Shown here in pieces: positions 2,476 through 38,085 of a stretch of DNA of 38,085 nucleotides. Made by a program: the position numbers and the translations under genes. Source of the DNA: a virus. Under the pieces are notes generated by a model, which was not told the origin of the DNA, did no database searches, and saw nothing but the letters and a program-made list of their open reading frames with translations. Each line of letters opens with the position of its first letter. Within the stretch, counting starts at the first letter, position 1. The stretch lies in the UHGV virus genome UHGV-0010575, one strand, 5' to 3'.

Positions 2476-2636
2476 TTCTTCCCACTCCGCCACATCGCAT
2501 TCAGATATTTGTTTTGATTTACTGATGGAAAAGAATTTCTCTTAAGCAATTCCTCTCTCGATGGCATTGGCTTTACGCGTTGGCGAATAATCATTTCTGC
2601 CGGAAGAATGCCGGGATTGTATGCAAGTCCTCTCAT
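2472..2636 (-). CDS. Small hypothetical protein (54 aa, [15 protein letters not shown]...)
   Basis: Hand-translated; AGAGGA SD about 8 nt upstream; ATGA-coupled to downstream gene. Confidence 0.35.
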
Positions 2637-2652
2637 GATTAATTCCTCTTTG

Positions 2653-2967
2653 TTAATTTATTTGTATGCCTGCTCTTTCTTCATCGAGTTTTTTTAGCTT
2701 GTATCGCATAGCCCTTACTGAATAAATTGAGCGGCAGGTTGCAATTGCTATTTCTTCTGCGGAGAACTTACCGAAAAGTGATACTTCGGCTCTTGTCCAT
2801 CGTCTTCCACGAAATCGGCTAACAATGTCAGCGCCAATCCTTGTTGCTTTCGCCATTACTGCTTTCTCAGTCCTTTCCAGTTTTTCAGCGATAACTTCAA
2901 CTGGCATTGTCGCCGCTACTTCGCGCAAGAAATCGACTTCCCATTTCTCCCATGGAGTCTTTTTCAT
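2653..2967 (-). CDS. Hypothetical protein (104 aa)
   Basis: ORF in track, same strand and tight spacing within the leftward early operon. Confidence 0.5.
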
Positions 2968-2978
2968 AGGCGATACCG

Positions 2979-3461
2979 TTATTTGATAAGAAGTGAAGGT
3001 TTCCCAACTTTTAGTTGAGCACCGGGGATATTTATTCCTGCTTTTAGTTGGTGTTTGATTGCCAGTTTGTCGGCTTTAATTGTCGTTTCAAACTCAACGT
3101 ATTCAGGAGGAAGGGCGCTTGAGTCGATGATTTCTACAGTTTCTGACGGTTTGCGGATTGTTACCTGGTGAATACCTGCTCGAATCTTTTTCTTGCCAAC
3201 CATTTCAAGCGATGACGCTATATACGCCATAATTCTGTCAATCTTATTTTGAATTACTGCGGCTCGCTCATTTAGTGACTTTGCCTCTTCCTTGAGGCGT
3301 TCAGCATAACCAGATTCATTTTTAATAATGGCAAGAAGTTGCTCTATTTTATCGGTAAATTCTCCTTCCATGCCTTCTATTGTGTCAGCAATCATCTCTG
3401 GTTCTAAATCTGAATCCATCAATTTTGCGTATTCATTGGCTATTTCATATAGTTTGCTCAC
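2979..3461 (-). CDS. Gp157-family phage protein (160 aa)
   Basis: N-terminal MSKLYEIANEY... and overall pattern recalled as siphovirus Gp157 family, commonly adjacent to RecT. Confidence 0.55.
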   Translation of the reverse strand: MSKLYEIANEYAKLMDSDLEPEMIADTIEGMEGEFTDKIEQLLAIIKNESGYAERLKEEAKSLNERAAVIQNKIDRIMAYIASSLEMVGKKKIRAGIHQVTIRKPSETVEIIDSSALPPEYVEFETTIKADKLAIKHQLKAGINIPGAQLKVGKPSLLIK

Positions 3462-5233: not shown

Positions 5234-5252
5234 AAGGCCGACTATGCGGCCT
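5234..5252 (-). terminator. Rho-independent terminator (stem AGGCCG/CGGCCU, U-rich tail on minus strand)
   Basis: Hairpin overlaps the stop of the 5242..5865 gene; minus-strand tail UUAUUUUUGG. Confidence 0.45.
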
Positions 5253-5865
5253 CGGAAGGAAGTCCAATCATCTTATTCAAATCTTCTACCCGTAAAGCAG
5301 GAAGTGCTGTACTTGCTTTATCTGCTTCTTTTGGTAGCAATTCTTTGCTTTCAGGCCAAACTTCAATAAGTCGCTTAACTGTTGTTACTGAGTTCAAAGC
5401 AGCCCATACATTTGATTCGATATCCTTTTTCTTGGCTTCAAGTTTTTGTTGTAATGCGCAGATTTCATCAAACCTTTTTGTTATTTCGTGCTCTGCGTCA
5501 AACATGCATTTATCTTTTGTCGGAGTAGGGAGCAATATATCTTCGCCGTTGCCGTCTTTCCCATATGAATGCCATCCAACCCTTCTGCCAGATACAGTAA
5601 GATAAATTGAAGTAGAACGAACATCGCATGAGTAAAATGAACATCCCATCTTTTCAAGTTCTTCACTTATAGCTACCAACTTGGATGATAACTGATCCAC
5701 TTCCTCAGTTTTCTTTTTACCGCCAAACGCAATAACTCTGGCGTCAAGTGCAAGCTGGTTCTTTAACTTTGTTACTTCTTCAAGTTCAGTGAAAACCCCA
5801 GACTTAATTAAAGCGTTACGAGCGATTTCCTCTTTCATTCTCGTAGTTAAGCGGATTGATGACAT
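5242..5865 (-). CDS. Hypothetical protein (207 aa), coiled-coil rich
   Basis: ORF in track (5242..5880); start at ATG 5865 with GAGGAA SD; no family recognised. Confidence 0.5.
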   Translation of the reverse strand: MSSIRLTTRMKEEIARNALIKSGVFTELEEVTKLKNQLALDARVIAFGGKKKTEEVDQLSSKLVAISEELEKMGCSFYSCDVRSTSIYLTVSGRRVGWHSYGKDGNGEDILLPTPTKDKCMFDAEHEITKRFDEICALQQKLEAKKKDIESNVWAALNSVTTVKRLIEVWPESKELLPKEADKASTALPALRVEDLNKMIGLPSEAA

Positions 5866-5982
5866 ATTAATTCCTCTCAAATAAGAAAATAAAGGCCACC
5901 ATCAGGCAGCCTTGTTGTTCTGTTTACCAAGTTCTCTGGCAATCATTGCCGTAGTTCGTATTGTCCACACCATTGATTTGTA

Positions 5983-6550: not shown

Positions 6551-6796
6551 GTCTGTTCCGTTTGGCTTCCAGCGTCCTGCTGACGGTTAAATAGTACGAT
6601 ATGTACTTTATTGGGTCAATACGATTTGTTCTAAAATGGGGTGATTTTTTATAACACTTTGTATTTAATAGTGTTGTTTTTTAGCGTGGGTGTATCGCCT
6701 CGGCGATGTAAGGAGAGATCAGAATTGCGTGGTTTAGTGAGTTGTATCTATTTATTTTTCAATAAATACATTTGGTTATGTGTCTTTAGGTGGGGC
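6551..6796 (-). promoter_or_regulatory. Candidate pL/OL region (AT-rich, inverted repeat AACACT-N11-AGTGTT at about 6652-6675)
   Basis: Position between cI operon terminator and nutL/N; shares TGTATTT motif with the OR region; exact operators and promoter not resolved. Confidence 0.3.
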
Positions 6797-6800
6797 GTGA

Positions 6801-6830
6801 GGCAAAGAAAACCCGGCGCTGAGGCCGGGT
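6801..6830 (-). terminator. Rho-independent terminator of the cI operon (stem CCCGGC/GCCGGG)
   Basis: Hairpin 6812-6829 followed on the minus strand by UUUUCUUUG; immediately downstream of the 206-aa gene. Confidence 0.6.
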
Positions 6831-6837
6831 TAATGCG

Positions 6838-7458
6838 TTAATGCTGGGGAGTGATTTTTTTGTTGTCTGTTGGCTGGGTATTTTGTGGCGGCGCTTGCAA
6901 AGTGGAAGGCTGTTGCAAAGGTGCGTGGTCTGACTTTAAAGCTGATACCAGCCCGGGAATCGCAACTATTACAGCGATAATGACACTAAAAATGGCTAAT
7001 CGTATAGAAATACCCGACTGAACACCACTAATTGCGGTATTAACCCCTGTTATTTGTCCTTGAATTCCTTCGAATCTCCCATTAATTGCTTTTATATCGC
7101 CAGCAGCGCTATCCATCTTTCCATCGATCTTGGACGATAGAGAGTTTATGGCTGCATTAAGTGATGCAAATTGGACATTAACGCTTTCACGAGATAGAGC
7201 CATGTCAGCCATAATGGAAGAAGCAATAGACTCCATCTCTGCTTTATTAGCAGCTAAGCGAGCATCAAGTTCCTCTCTGCTGATCGTTCCCACTTCTTCC
7301 TCCGTTTGTGGCGGTTTTATGTAATTATTTTGCACCTTGGTGGGAGAATTATCAAATTCAGCCTCAAAATAGGAACCGCCAACAACCTTCAACCTCCGGC
7401 TTTCAGATATGTTGGTGTCTTGCTTTCCATGATTATTTAAATTGCTGTCGTCACTCAT
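6838..7458 (-). CDS. Unrecognised protein (206 aa): coiled-coil region, single C-terminal transmembrane helix, Pro/Gln-rich tail
   Basis: ORF in track; hydrophobic segment IRLAIFSVIIAVIVAIPGLVSAL; ATGA overlap with upstream ORF; no family recognised. Confidence 0.55.
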   Translation of the reverse strand: MSDDSNLNNHGKQDTNISESRRLKVVGGSYFEAEFDNSPTKVQNNYIKPPQTEEEVGTISREELDARLAANKAEMESIASSIMADMALSRESVNVQFASLNAAINSLSSKIDGKMDSAAGDIKAINGRFEGIQGQITGVNTAISGVQSGISIRLAIFSVIIAVIVAIPGLVSALKSDHAPLQQPSTLQAPPQNTQPTDNKKITPQH

Positions 7459-7889
7459 AATAGCTCTACGGTGAAAAATGATTCATTTTTATGAAGTTCA
7501 TTTTTAGGGTCTTCATTATCCTGCAATATCCCTATAACACTATACAGCCCTTTAGCTGGGACCCTAATTTCTTTCAATGTTACTATTACCTGTCCGCCAA
7601 CCCCTGTTTCAAAATGGCTATCTTTCGTATCGATGAAAAGTGAAACTGATTCCGAAGAGCCGTCAGGGAATTGAATTTCCTCACCTTTTTTTATAATTAG
7701 GTGCGCGGGGATTACCATAATACCCAAATTATATCTTGAATTTGGTTTCAACCCGATCATACCAACCCTGAAATCAATTGATAGCCGCGCAGGAAATTCA
7801 TTGCATGTAAAATTAAGCGTCGGTTGGTTGGGTTCTTCGCTGCTATCAAATGGGGTTATAAAAGATATTCTTTCTAAATTAAGTGCCAT
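7455..7889 (-). CDS. Unrecognised protein (about 144 aa)
   Basis: ORF in track (7455..7943); start at ATG 7889 with AGGAG 6 nt upstream; AT-rich coding sequence. Confidence 0.5.
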   Translation of the reverse strand: MALNLERISFITPFDSSEEPNQPTLNFTCNEFPARLSIDFRVGMIGLKPNSRYNLGIMVIPAHLIIKKGEEIQFPDGSSESVSLFIDTKDSHFETGVGGQVIVTLKEIRVPAKGLYSVIGILQDNEDPKNELHKNESFFTVELL

Positions 7890-7939
7890 AAATTCTCCTG
7901 CATCGCTGTATGCTCTACGAGCATCTCGGCGACTTATCA

Positions 7940-8593
7940 TCACCCAAACGTCTCTTCAGGCCACTGACTAGCGATAACTTTCCCCACAACGGAACAACTC
8001 TCATTGCATGGGATCATTGGGTATTGTGGGTTTAGTGGCTGTAGAAACACCTGACCGCTATCCCTGATCAGTTTCTTGAAGGTAAATTCATCACCACCAA
8101 GTCTGGCTATGCAGAAATCGCCGGGCTCAACAGCTTGCTCTGGGTCAACCAGAATTAACATCCCGTCAGGAAAACTAGGTTTGGAACCTGTTGGGGCGGT
8201 CATTGAGTTACCTTCAACCTCAAGCCAGAATGCAGAGTCACTGGCTTTTTTGGTTGTGCTTACCAATCTCTCCGCATCGCCTTTGGTAAAGGTTCTGAGT
8301 TCTGGAGAGAACATCCCAGCCTGAACATGAGAAAAAACAGGGTACTCATATTGTTTTTTAACTGGGGCCGATGAGTATTCGCCAACAGGTGAAAATGTCC
8401 CGTCGTGGTTGAATGATATGTTATCAATACCAAGGTATTTAAACACCACACCAATATCACTAAGAGATGGATGACGAGATCCGCGCAACCAGTGTCCAAT
8501 CCCACCCTGCGTCATACCTAGCTCTTCGGCTAACTTCTCTTGAGTTATGCCGAGCTCTTTCATTCTGGATCTAGCCAGTTCATACCATTTCAT
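7940..8593 (-). CDS. cI: CI-type prophage repressor (HTH_XRE N-domain, LexA/S24-like C-domain)
   Basis: N-terminal HTH ([20 protein letters not shown]), AGMF and GNSM motifs of autocleaving repressors; divergent from the cro-like gene. Confidence 0.85.
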
Positions 8594-8708
8594 TTTCATG
8601 TCCTTATTATTACGCTCTGTATTGCAACCATCCATGCACAATGTGTATTTTTACTTGCATTCAAAAAGTACATATTGTATTTTTCTTCATGGTTACTATG
8701 GAGGGCAT
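8594..8708. promoter_or_regulatory. Divergent cI/cro control region (candidate OR, PRM, PR)
   Basis: 115-bp intergenic region between divergent cI and cro; contains short inverted repeats (CACA-A-TGTG, TACA-N3-TGTA, TTGCAA); operators not assigned. Confidence 0.5.
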
Positions 8709-15090: not shown

Positions 15091-15165
15091 GGGTCAGTCG
15101 TATAAAGGTCATTACGGAAGGCTGTTAACCTTCTTATCGTGGTTCGAGTCCACGCTGTCCCGCCA
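15091..15165 (+). tRNA. tRNA-Asn-like (anticodon GTT), 75 nt, one T·T mismatch in acceptor stem and 3-bp D stem
   Basis: Hand-folded cloverleaf: anticodon loop CTGTTAA, T-arm CGTGG-TTCGAGT-CCACG, discriminator G, CCA encoded. Confidence 0.55.
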
Positions 15166-15170
15166 AACAT

Positions 15171-15246
15171 GCTGGTTTAGCTCCAATGGTAGAGCGGTCG
15201 CCTTGTAAGCGAATGGGTAGCGGTTCAAGTCCGTTAACCAGCACCA
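15171..15246 (+). tRNA. tRNA-Thr (anticodon TGT), 76 nt
   Basis: Hand-folded cloverleaf: acceptor GCTGGTT/AACCAGC, D-arm GCTC-CAATGGTA-GAGC, anticodon loop CTTGTAA, T-loop TTCAAGT, discriminator A, CCA encoded. Confidence 0.7.
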
Positions 15247-35026: not shown

Positions 35027-35226
35027 GTAAAGAATGTTGTTTCTGCGGCATTAGCGAATCAGACACTGATCAAACATACATTTACTCTAAAGAAACAGGT
35101 CGGATGCTGTGTAGTGACTGCGTGTTGGACATCATAAGATACAAGCATCTTGGATGTTCTGCCAGCATTAGCAATATAGGTGAAGTATACGAAGGGAAAG
35201 ATATAACTGATAGAGCAGAAAGTTGA
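35023..35226 (+). CDS. Small Cys-rich (zinc-ribbon-like) protein (67 aa)
   Basis: ATGA overlap with arc stop; CxxC...CxxC pattern (CCFCG ... CSDC). Confidence 0.4.
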
Positions 35227-35288
35227 AGCCCCAACTGCGGGAACAGTCAGGGCTTCGGTATCAACAAAACTTACGAGGTATTATTGAT

Positions 35289-36179
35289 ATGTCAAGCTTA
35301 GCAAAGTCAGCTGTAAATTGCACTAATAGCATCATCATTTCTGACGTCAAGATTCATATGGATTCAGAGGGTCGTTACTCGCTTAATGACCTTCATGTAG
35401 CGTCTGGAAAGGAGGAAAAACATCAGCCAGCTTTCTTCATGCGTAGAAATGAAACTATTGAATTGATTAATGAAATTTTTAATTCTGCGGATATGCAGAA
35501 TAAGAATCCCGTCATTTCTAAGAAAGGTAGATATGGTGGAACATACGTGTGCAAGGAGCTTGTTTACTCCTACGCCATGTGGATTAGCGCAGCATTTGCG
35601 CTGAAGGTTATCCGCGCATATGACGCAATGGTTACTGCCACACAAGAGAGGAAGGCTATTGGCGGTAAAACTTCAGTAGCTGAACGCACGCCGCTACGCG
35701 ATGCAGTAAACATGCTGGTAGGAAAGAAAGGACTTCGCTATGACGATGCATACAATATGGTTCATCAGCGTTTTGGTATTGACAGCATTGATGAACTTTC
35801 AATTGAACAAATCCCGCTGGCCGTAGAGTACATCCACAGGGTAGTGCTTGAAGGTGAGTTCATTGGCAAACAAGAGAAGAAAACCAACGAGCTTTCTGCA
35901 AAAGAAGCAAACAGCCTTGTATGGTTATGGGATTATGCCAACCGCTCACAGGCATTATTCCGCGAATTGTATCCGGCATTAAAACAAATTCAATCGAACT
36001 ATTCCGGCAGATGCTACGACTATGGTCATGAGTTCTCGTATGTTATCGGAATGGCGAGAGACGTTTTAATAAACCACACACGAGATATTGATATTAATGA
36101 GCCAGACGGACCAACGAATCTTTCCGCATGGATGAGACTTAAGAATAAAGAATTACCTCCTTCAATACATAACTACTGA
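35289..36179 (+). CDS. ant: Antirepressor (KilA-N domain N-terminus)
   Basis: Position downstream of arc; KilA-N-like N-terminal region; start at internal ATG of track ORF. Confidence 0.6.
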
Positions 36180-36279: not shown

Positions 36280-38085
36280 ATGACAGACATTATACCTAAC
36301 ATTATAGTTTCCATGCCTAATCAATTGTTCACAATGTCAAGAACATTTAAATCAGTATCGAATGGAAGCATTTATATCGGGAAGCCTGATACCGATCCGA
36401 CTAATCCAGATAATCAAGTGGATGTTTATTTTGAGAATGAGAATGGAAAATATATTAAGGTTTCTCAACCAATAAAAATAAGTCAAGCTGGACAACCTGT
36501 ATTGAATGGTCAATTCGGTAAGTTTGCGACTATAAAAAATCACTCAATGGCGATTTTTGATGCGTATGGCTCTCAGCAGCACTATTTCCCAAATGTAATG
36601 AAATATGCTCCAGATCAGTTAAGGCAGGAATTAACAAATTTTTCTGGTGAAAATTCTCCTGGTTATGCTGACCCAAGTAATACGGTATGGGGAATTGATG
36701 CATTTTCTTCTAATGAATATGCGAAAAATAATGCTTTTTTCGGAGTTGGAGCAGGATCATCAATTATAGGTAACGAGTCAGATGAGGCTGTTGGTGCGGA
36801 AAATACTGGTATTGGTAGACGAGCCGGTGCAAGCCTTACAACAGGACAGCGCAATGTTCTACTTGGACATGAGGCTGGAGCACTGTTAACTACAGGTAGT
36901 TGTAATATTTTTATTTACGCTCAAAGTTCTTCTTATGCCAACTATAAAACCGGTAGTTATAATGTAGTGGTTGGTTATAACGCTGGCAAACTATTAACAT
37001 CAGGAGAGAGAAATGTTTCAGTTGGTACGGATGCTGGGTCACGAACAACAACAGGAAGAGATAACGTTGCTGTCGGTCAAGCAGCAATGCAAAATAACTC
37101 AACTGGTGGTGGTAATACCTATATAGGAGCATTCTCTGGTGCTGAGACGGGAACTGGCGGTAATAATCTTGCTGCAGGTCGCTCTGCCTTATTTAGAAAT
37201 GTGGATGGTTCTGGAAACGTTGCACTAGGACGTGAGGCTTCTCTTGGTTTGTCTTCATATGGGGAATCTCCCAATAATATTGTTGCTATAGGGTATCAAG
37301 CTGCATGGTCACAGAATGGATTAAATGGTGTTGTTTTTTGTGGGATGCAAGCAGGATATAAAGCAACAAAAATGAATGATTCAGTTCTTATTGGTAGGGC
37401 TTCCGGCTTTAATTTAACAACAGGAAGTGATAATGTTTTTGTTGGTGCAGCGTCAGGAGATAGTGAGACTACTGGAACCCAATTAGTATATCTTGGACAT
37501 CAAGCTGGTAGGTTTTTGATTGATGGGACACCTGCAAAAGAGAAATTAAATTGTGTAGCTTTAGGCTGCCGTGCCAGAGTTGGTGGAGATCATGAGATTC
37601 AGTTAGGAAATTCTTCTCAGACAGTTTATGTATATGGTACGGTGCAAACTCGGTCTGATGAGCGTGATAAAGCAGATAAACGAATAATAGACGGAGAACT
37701 TGCTGTATCATTCGTCCGTGGAATAATCCCATATTTTTATAAGTGGGATTTTCGTGATGATTATATAGAAGAATACAATGTAAAAATTGGTGATGATTCT
37801 AATGGCAATCCGATTTTTGAAACTAGAATTCATCAACATGAAAAAGATGGCAGTAGAAAAAGGAAAAGAGAACATGCCGGGTATCTTGCACAGCAAGTTA
37901 AAGAATTACTTGATCGACTTGGAATTGACTGTGGTATATATCAAGATCATCTAGTAAACAATGGATGCGATGTAAAAACAATTGCCTACGAACAGGTTAT
38001 ACCGTTTGTTACAAAGGCTATAGATGTTGCATTTTCAAGGATAGAGGGGTTAGAGCAAAGATTGAACAAACTCGAAAACCTATAA
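36280..38085 (+). CDS. Tailspike: P22-type head-binding N-domain + repeat-rich receptor domain + C-terminal intramolecular-chaperone (S74-like) domain
   Basis: N-terminus MTDIIPNIIVSMPNQLFTMSRTFKSVSNGSIYIGKPDTDPTNP matches P22 gp9 head-binding domain; central xTTG repeats; C-terminal SDERDK...coiled coil typical of autoprocessing chaperone domains; AT-rich. Confidence 0.8.
   Translation: MTDIIPNIIVSMPNQLFTMSRTFKSVSNGSIYIGKPDTDPTNPDNQVDVYFENENGKYIKVSQPIKISQAGQPVLNGQFGKFATIKNHSMAIFDAYGSQQHYFPNVMKYAPDQLRQELTNFSGENSPGYADPSNTVWGIDAFSSNEYAKNNAFFGVGAGSSIIGNESDEAVGAENTGIGRRAGASLTTGQRNVLLGHEAGALLTTGSCNIFIYAQSSSYANYKTGSYNVVVGYNAGKLLTSGERNVSVGTDAGSRTTTGRDNVAVGQAAMQNNSTGGGNTYIGAFSGAETGTGGNNLAAGRSALFRNVDGSGNVALGREASLGLSSYGESPNNIVAIGYQAAWSQNGLNGVVFCGMQAGYKATKMNDSVLIGRASGFNLTTGSDNVFVGAASGDSETTGTQLVYLGHQAGRFLIDGTPAKEKLNCVALGCRARVGGDHEIQLGNSSQTVYVYGTVQTRSDERDKADKRIIDGELAVSFVRGIIPYFYKWDFRDDYIEEYNVKIGDDSNGNPIFETRIHQHEKDGSRKRKREHAGYLAQQVKELLDRLGIDCGIYQDHLVNNGCDVKTIAYEQVIPFVTKAIDVAFSRIEGLEQRLNKLENL

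Follow-up and report, generated by a model that had tools for sequence, protein, structure and literature searches.

A candidate phage-exclusion cassette at the rexAB position of a lambdoid prophage, with an exchangeable head and partner gene

What takes the place of rexA and rexB in a lambdoid prophage that carries neither of them, and what could it do for the lysogen? The question is raised by the UHGV virus genome UHGV-0010575, a stretch of 38,085 nucleotides (nt) that we call the window, in which two adjacent genes, herein named orfA and orfB, occupy the interval between the repressor gene cI and a terminator of the lambda Timm type. Our analysis revealed that the pair is a clean non-homologous replacement of rexAB, and that it joins a conserved tail-anchored membrane protein to a head and an upstream partner gene which vary together. 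Because of the turnover of partner families and a slot rich in defence candidates, we favour the reading that the cassette is a lysogen-expressed module for exclusion or abortive infection of other phages, and we give this defence role a probability of about two in five.

The interval itself merits attention. In PMC8585504 and PMC7067206, which both cite Degnan et al. 2007, the region between cI and N is described as a hotspot of mosaicism and morons and as a frequent site of lysogen-expressed accessory genes, rexAB and bstA among them. The original prediction, which had picked out the two genes as an unrecognised operon, had likewise called the slot a hotspot of cargo, and beside these papers the phages that share the window's cI allele agree with it, as they carry other cargo there. 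For example in phage ev017 the slot holds a DUF1828/DUF6978 pair that matches the PADLOC candidate PDC-M24, in phages 2B8 and E212 it holds a NYN-domain protein (NYN nuclease), and in phages 2G7b and YYZ-2008 it holds proteins without known function.

Between cI and Timm

The window aligns with lambda in two blocks, one on either side of the pair. The left flank, from 6713 to 6832, is 90% identical to lambda 35708-35827, spans Timm and ends at the rexB stop codon, while the right block, from 7939 to 8350, is 93% identical at the DNA level to lambda 37226-37637 and covers the C-terminal domain of cI from its stop codon. The homology with lambda ends precisely at the edges of the cassette, the left of which is marked by the left flank, and the 1106 bp between the two blocks (6833-7938) are therefore an exact replacement of rexA-rexB. 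The annotation of phage HK542 agrees with such a placement between cI and Timm, and the terminator there is annotated as Timm.

On the minus strand the order is cI (7940-8596/8641), a gap of 50 nt (7890-7939), orfA (7455-7889; 144 amino acids, aa) and orfB (6838-7458; 206 aa), and the unit is closed by an intrinsic terminator at 6801-6831. The repressor, which has HTH_3 (2e-10) and Peptidase_S24 (1e-28) domains, would be the first gene of the operon. The ATG of orfA is at 7889, with an AGGAG Shine-Dalgarno sequence 7 nt upstream in the gap, and the stop codon of orfA and the start codon of orfB share four nucleotides (ATGA), as seen in ctattATGAgtgac and, in longer context, in gagctattATGAgtgac. 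The terminator is homologous to Timm, in a region 90% identical to that of lambda; on the minus strand from 6831 to 6801 it reads AACCCGGC-CTCAGC-GCCGGGTT and then TTCTTTG, and its stem of 8 pairs, 6 of them G-C, has a folding energy of -17.1 kcal/mol (z = -2.3 against shuffles). A scan of the interval between cI and orfA gave no terminator-like site or hairpin. We infer that cI, orfA and orfB are transcribed together from the repressor promoters up to the Timm-type terminator, and the cassette would therefore be made in lysogens. The two genes, their ATGA overlap and the terminator had all been placed correctly in the original prediction, and so had the rexAB slot, now bounded by the cI stop codon and Timm in the lambda alignment; its further claim, that the pair is coupled to cI, is borne out by the common strand, the short gap, the lack of an internal terminator and the single shared terminator.

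Both genes are real and under purifying selection. They match PHROG families that carry no functional annotation, orfA family 5893 at 2e-50 and orfB family 5820 at 2e-75, and in comparison with homologues in other genera their ratio of nonsynonymous to synonymous change (pN/pS) is about 0.14-0.29, with synonymous sites saturated; the conservation and the pN/pS together rule out that they are spurious open reading frames. As for the start of orfA, some gene callers as well as RefSeq use a 162-aa version from a GTG/ATG start (window 7890-7943) which overlaps the cI stop codon (gggTGATGa). This start was rejected, since homologues from other genera lack the extension and all start at the downstream ATG, whose Shine-Dalgarno sequence is strong, so that 144 aa is the conserved product and the extension is probably untranslated; with the long start, which overlaps the cI stop codon, translation of orfA could however be coupled to that of cI. 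Also considered and rejected was an internal promoter of the lambda pLit kind, as promoter-like sites are no more frequent than in shuffled sequence.

Stalk, head and partner gene

The second gene of the cassette, orfB, is the one in which a constant and a variable part can be told apart. Counted from its N-terminus, and with all coordinates on the minus strand, the protein consists of a head (residues 1-57; 7288-7458) that is predicted to be disordered and is poorly conserved, a neck with the sequence TISREELDA (residues 58-66; 7261-7287) at which the conserved region starts, a stalk predicted as one long helix (residues 67-150; 7009-7260), a transmembrane helix seen both in the hydropathy and in the helix prediction (residues 151-175; 6934-7008), and a Pro/Gln-rich C-terminal tail, presumably periplasmic (residues 176-206; 6841-6933). 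The fraction of the majority residue across the family is 0.30 in the head, 0.70 in the neck, 0.68 in the stalk, 0.75 in the membrane helix and 0.45 in the tail, and it is highest, at 0.85, in the membrane-proximal Gly-containing heptads, which extend over residues 108-150 and whose two core positions are occupied by Ile, Val, Phe or Met. The structure model, of low confidence (predicted local distance difference test, pLDDT, 58), gives helices at 61-142 and 150-175 with both termini disordered, and the hydropathy has a single peak (Kyte-Doolittle 2.71 at 156-174). Since a signal peptide is lacking and the anchor comes only after 150 residues, the bulk of the protein would be cytoplasmic and its tail periplasmic. 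The tail-anchored architecture suggested in the original prediction is thus upheld, by one C-terminal hydrophobic segment together with the predicted helices.

By the rules of coiled coils, Ile/Val-type residues at both core positions of the heptads favour trimers. The top matches of orfB among solved structures are the haemagglutinin HA2, the reovirus sigma-1, a short tail fibre and 6h9l (three chains listed), of which we take the first three to be trimeric coiled coils, and the stalk is probably trimeric as well. A structure search with the orfB model gave no match, as expected of a single long helix; searches against Pfam and NCBIfam gave nothing significant, and against PADLOC-DB 2.0.0 only one match of coiled-coil type at E 0.029.

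The partner protein, orfA, has no hydrophobic segment in its hydropathy, and its predicted fold is a seven-strand beta-sandwich of moderate confidence (pLDDT 67), so that with this degree of confidence it is described as a cytoplasmic beta-sandwich. Its model matches uncharacterised phage proteins of similar size in a library of viral structures, and its alignment profile gives chance-level matches only against solved structures; nothing significant is found in Pfam and NCBIfam, and PADLOC-DB 2.0.0 gives zero matches.

The two genes are connected by the way they vary. At every locus examined a small gene on the same strand lies immediately 5' of orfB, often with overlapping stop and start codons, and these small partner genes fall into at least six families without mutual relationship detectable by BLAST or by profile-profile comparison, where all probabilities are below 6%. 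Beside the orfA type (143-144 aa), there are a Salmonella protein of 149 aa, whose C-terminal motif looks orfA-like by eye but which the profile comparison leaves unrelated (5.8%), four groups whose members measure 92-97 aa, 98-101 aa, 100-102 aa and, in the group marked by two CxxC pairs, 109-120 aa, and lastly a protein of 82 aa. When the orfB sequences are clustered by the part upstream of the neck, the head types map one-to-one onto the partner families. For instance the head motif L-K/R-V-V/I-x-G-S/T-x-F-E/D-A is present only in orfB proteins that have an orfA-type partner, and the orfA-type partner with the matching head motif is found also on a divergent subtype of stalk and anchor, in Citrobacter and Phytobacter. 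Moreover, two metagenomic relatives of orfB (L064, 4001-4534, and L066, 576-1184) are identical from the neck to the C-terminus and have unrelated heads, and their upstream partners differ too, with 82 aa in the former and 100 aa in the latter, which looks like a recent swap of a cartridge. The neck is the joint at which heads are exchanged, and the pattern is most simply read as binding of the partner to the orfB head, with the head motif as the proposed docking site of orfA. The original prediction had spoken of a membrane effector with a soluble sensor or partner; the partnership gains support from the strict co-variation of head and partner, whereas the roles of effector and sensor stay at the level of proposals.

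The family of orfB is wide. An exhaustive profile search gave 279 cluster representatives at E < 1e-3, 101 of them at < 1e-10, mostly of 160-270 aa. A C-proximal membrane segment is present in 78 of the 79 members examined, the neck motif I/V/M/F-S/T-R/K-x-E/D-L/I at the junction of head and stalk in 56, and the tail motif P-(I/V)3-Q-(I/V)-P in 37. The window's orfB has a degenerate version of the last: in the E. coli/HK542 form the tail reads QPSTLQAPP where most close relatives have QP-III-Q-VP, so that the hydrophobic core of the motif is lost.

As to remote relatives, 23 of 57 family members match PF07798 (CCDC90-like, the former DUF1640), and the matches keep the register of the C-terminal end of that profile; P0117 is above the gathering score with 34.7 bits against 33.5, and the others are below it. 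The broad family profile has 6h9l as its best solved structure (E 4e-4), aligned over repeated ATKEDIE units. However, the window's orfB itself gives no match to PF07798 at E up to 1. Its membership of the CCDC90-like/DUF1640 proteins is therefore not proven, and we speak of a remote relative or of a match in architecture. That class is said to be trimeric with a layout of head, neck, stalk and anchor and with variable heads, as Adlakha and colleagues reportedly described in 2019. The membrane proteins of the DUF1640 family are described as having a beta-layer motif where their stalk begins (PMC4786415), and the orfB neck, compared by sequence alone, resembles published beta-layers such as FVTKTEF from the same source and differs from the consensus. 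Accordingly the statement in the original prediction that neither protein belongs to Rex, Sie or any named family stands for the searches in Pfam, NCBIfam and PADLOC, but has to be relaxed for orfB in view of this remote link.

Another and weaker lead concerns membrane activity. The conserved segment of orfB matches residues 151-210 of SmhB, presumably its membrane-inserting head as judged from the hydrophobic sequence, at E 0.014, and none of 2000 block-preserving shuffles reaches the score; a weak match to MakE has E 0.0034 and 16 bits against a cut-off of 360. Such resemblance hints weakly at a membrane-active role.

Distribution and possible roles

The cassette is 99.9% identical in the lambda-immunity phages HK542 and HK244, the sole matches among 50,697 phage records, where both genes are annotated as hypothetical proteins. 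In complete E. coli genomes it occurs in 51 of 5426 (about 1%), always as one chromosomal copy of 97.5-99.9% identity, and it stands behind at least four different repressor alleles. Homologues of both genes are found in Klebsiella, Enterobacter, Citrobacter, Cedecea and other genera of Enterobacterales, and a scan of one genome per species added two further loci only. About 18 of 21 evaluable contexts have the pair downstream of a prophage repressor, either of the S24 cI type or of a short helix-turn-helix type, on the same strand and upstream of early-left recombination genes; they come from Escherichia, Klebsiella-type contigs, Cedecea, Salmonella, Yersinia, Pectobacterium, Leclercia, Enterobacter, Citrobacter and distant metagenomic relatives. 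In four of these about 18 contexts an extra gene or gap precedes the pair, namely in the E. coli loci with DUF3024, in L049, in L064, and in L015/L053 with an untranslated gap of about 390 nt.

Some of the neighbouring genes are worth recording. In about 12 E. coli prophages a DUF3024 gene of 113 aa, which is the PADLOC candidate PDC-S43 (E 1e-40), lies between the repressor and orfA, so that a three-gene array of cargo is formed 3' of the repressor (L017-L033, for example 3158-3499 in L017; also 3623-3964 in L070). Further stacked cargo is seen in L049, where a 160-aa protein with an N-terminal hydrophobic segment (2535-3017) is inserted between an S24 repressor and the pair of partner and orfB.

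The window as a whole is an E. coli lambdoid prophage, whose immunity region is 99.8% identical to that of a prophage beside sbcB in strain AVS0655. Its cI (7939-8641) is a hybrid, in which the C-terminal S24 domain is lambda-like with 93% DNA identity and the N-terminal DNA-binding domain is a different allele, common to phages ev017, 2B8, 2G7b, YYZ-2008, E212 and many Shiga toxin (Stx) phages; the cassette appears to travel with the lambda-type 3' end of cI as one recombination flank. The remainder of the window looks P22-like, with the sar antisense RNA, an Ant-sized open reading frame and a tailspike-sized one. The sar RNA (35221-35287, minus strand; Rfam RF00262, 69.7 bits) lies opposite a 318-aa open reading frame (35223-36179, plus strand), and by analogy with P22 immI we take the two to point to a second immunity region with an antirepressor, so that in the window a virion module of the P22 kind would be joined to an immC of the lambda kind. 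Just beyond N lies a 212-aa gene (5242-5880, minus strand), whose counterpart in the near-identical prophage of AVS0655 bears the annotation 'Nmad5 family putative nucleotide modification protein'. Adjacent genes for tRNA-Asn(GTT) and tRNA-Thr(TGT) lie at 15091-15246, in the late-regulatory, lysis-proximal part of the window; according to a preprint (10.64898/2026.07.10.737580), phages can use tRNA-Thr(UGU) to counter the OLD tRNase defence.

How might such a cassette work? We propose that orfA-orfB is an accessory ('moron') cassette of the lambdoid immunity region, made in lysogens along with cI. The orfB protein would sit in the inner membrane through its one C-terminal helix, the short Pro/Gln tail being outside, and its long, probably trimeric stalk would project the short N-terminal head into the cytoplasm, where orfA, the predicted beta-sandwich, may dock on it. 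Head and partner gene would then form an exchangeable specificity module, and the neck, the Gly-rich heptads and the membrane helix the constant working part. In such a scheme a cue derived from a phage would be sensed or bound by orfA together with the head, whereupon the conserved membrane-proximal segment might disturb the inner membrane or some step of infection that is bound to a membrane, and the outcome would be the exclusion or abortive infection of other phages, the lysogen being protected as by rexAB. The more specific proposal, in which the pair is the first known case of a widespread, repressor-linked immunity architecture where a constant trimeric stalk of the MCUR1/DUF1640 kind, as effector or platform, carries interchangeable phage-sensing cartridges of head and partner, with at least six unrelated partner families, we regard as doubtful though worth stating; if true, it would supply a first function for the prokaryotic relatives of MCUR1/CCDC90B.

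Several observations weigh against a defence role. No experiment or database ties either protein to defence, to toxicity or to damage of the membrane, PADLOC being without a match, and the hotspot location is circumstantial because such slots carry non-defence morons too. The co-variation of head and partner could partly reflect the linkage of adjacent, co-inherited DNA, and in three contexts (L008, L048 and L051/52) the pair has no adjacent repressor. Since the membrane helix is fully hydrophobic, a trimer of the orfB anchor would make no obvious channel, and the matches to the pore-forming toxins SmhB and MakE are below significance. Moreover, the models on which the proposal draws are of moderate (orfA, pLDDT 67) or low (orfB, pLDDT 58) confidence, and the window's orfB is without the P-III-Q-V-P tail motif that is seen in many relatives.

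A different explanation, which we hold to be rather unlikely, is lysogenic conversion of a non-defence kind, in which orfB is a membrane scaffold whose head and partner recruit or regulate a host component, with altered envelope physiology, transport or stress tolerance as the benefit to the lysogen. This would suit the remote link to the CCDC90-like/DUF1640 proteins, described not as toxins but as scaffolds, a role that Adlakha and colleagues are said to have assigned in 2019 to proteins of the MCUR1/CCDC90B type; it would suit as well an orfB without enzymatic or toxin domain and an external tail motif whose retention in 37 of 79 relatives points to a fixed contact with the host. A scaffold role of CCDC90-like proteins is stated also in 10.1101/2025.10.14.682030, and lambda lysogens are known to express the non-defence morons lom and bor (PMC7067206). 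However, a fixed host target poorly explains the turnover of at least six partner families with matched heads, which is more like an arms race, and the neighbouring and alternative cargo of the slot is enriched in defence candidates. 

The pair might instead serve the prophage itself, as an accessory that tunes the switch between lysis and lysogeny, induction or the timing of lysis, maybe as a membrane-tethered regulator or protease adaptor. An influence of RexA and RexB on the lambda switch and on Clp-dependent proteolysis is reported, and both the very tight linkage to repressor genes of many unrelated types and the position between the repressor and the early-left operon would be natural for such a function; but the three contexts in which the pair has no repressor nearby speak against it, and because the pair stands behind at least four repressor alleles and is absent from many phages whose repressor is the same, it cannot be integral to any one switch, so that we consider this quite improbable. 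Lower still in our estimate is an addiction pair of the toxin-antitoxin kind, where orfB is a membrane toxin which the coupled upstream protein neutralises through the head, thereby stabilising the prophage; should the toxin be set free when a phage infects, this reading would overlap with abortive infection. The order of a small gene before a larger one, the overlapping stop and start codons in many members, and the one-to-one matching of heads and partners, similar to that of cognate toxins and neutralisers, are all in line with it, yet no toxin or antitoxin family is matched in Pfam, NCBIfam or PADLOC, the partners have no DNA-binding domains typical of type II antitoxins, and the variable part is a short disordered head and not a catalytic domain. 

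To return to phage exclusion, which remains our preferred explanation, its significance lies in the place and the design of the cassette: it replaces rexAB cleanly and without homology in the very interval that yielded rexAB and bstA, and as a defence system it would be an added family of unusual design, in which a constant tail-anchored coiled-coil stalk is combined with swappable cartridges of head and partner. If true, it would offer a tractable model of sensing coupled to a membrane effector, which is poorly understood for Rex (PMC8585504), and a biological role for the bacterial and phage relatives of DUF1640/MCUR1. Even without a function in defence, the cassette would stand as a lysogen-side membrane module that is conserved and that about 1% of complete E. 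coli genomes carry. The candidate is accessible to experiment, as HK542 and HK244 are isolated lambda-immunity phages and the former is in current laboratory use.

Comparison with known systems

Accessory and defence cargo 3' of cI is already well known; the protein architecture and the cartridge-like modularity are undescribed for any characterised system that we found. A literature search gave nothing on the orfA and orfB proteins, and the supplements of DefensePredictor do not list them. Neither protein matches XhlA, SieA/SieB, Imm or similar proteins in Pfam, PHROGs or NCBIfam, and the pair lies in the immunity region, not in the lysis cassette as do the holin-associated proteins of the XhlA type. 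The other cargo of the slot, namely PDC-M24, PDC-S43/DUF3024 and the NYN protein, resembles orfA-orfB in its cI-proximal position, partly with the same cI allele, and in being small lysogen-side cargo, but the proteins are unrelated and are themselves computational candidates only.

With the tripartite alpha-pore-forming toxins of the ClyA family the likeness is local. The SmhB segment IDGINAAIDGAIAGIV can be set against ItGInTAisGiqSGiS of orfB, and both have a Gly-containing amphipathic helix that runs into a hydrophobic helix; however, SmhB and MakE are secreted, measure about 350 aa and have a helical bundle as their tail, whereas orfB is a tail-anchored protein of 206 aa at the cytoplasmic face, predicted as a single long helix, and the resemblance may be convergent. 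The CCDC90-like/DUF1640 proteins (PF07798: MCUR1, CCDC90B and prokaryotic relatives) share the layout, with a variable head, a conserved motif at the start of the stalk, a coiled coil and a C-terminal anchor. Their consensus neck is [aliphatic]-A-T-K-[polar]-[D/E] and that of orfB is I-S-R-E-E-L, and the head of orfB differs in being short, disordered and paired with a separate partner gene; we know of no DUF1640 protein that has been tied to prophage repressor operons.

Regarding genomic position, BstA of Salmonella phage BTP1, which acts by abortive infection, is a close parallel, as it is encoded directly 3' of the prophage repressor, is expressed in the lysogen and keeps its link to the repressor across genera (PMC8585504). 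It differs in being encoded by one gene, inside which lies an anti-BstA DNA element, and in that its product acts at the sites of phage replication and is not a membrane protein, and no similarity of orfA or orfB to BstA is found in Pfam, NCBIfam, PHROGs and PADLOC.

There is also the comparison with lambda RexA/RexB, an abortive-infection system expressed together with cI, which excludes T4 rII and other phages by depolarising the membrane. By the same four databases orfA and orfB have no similarity to Rex, and RexA with 279 aa is unlike orfA, a predicted beta-sandwich of 144 aa. RexB has four membrane helices. Such a polytopic, ion-channel-like protein (PMC8585504) differs from orfB with its one C-terminal membrane helix and long cytoplasmic coiled coil. 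Still the two systems share the identical slot at nucleotide resolution, from the cI stop codon to Timm, and the same arrangement of two genes on the cI strand, the soluble one first and the membrane one second, with a probable expression in the lysogen for orfA-orfB as for rexAB. If the proposal of a constant stalk with exchangeable phage-sensing cartridges is true, the cassette would be a structurally new solution to the job of RexAB at the same locus.

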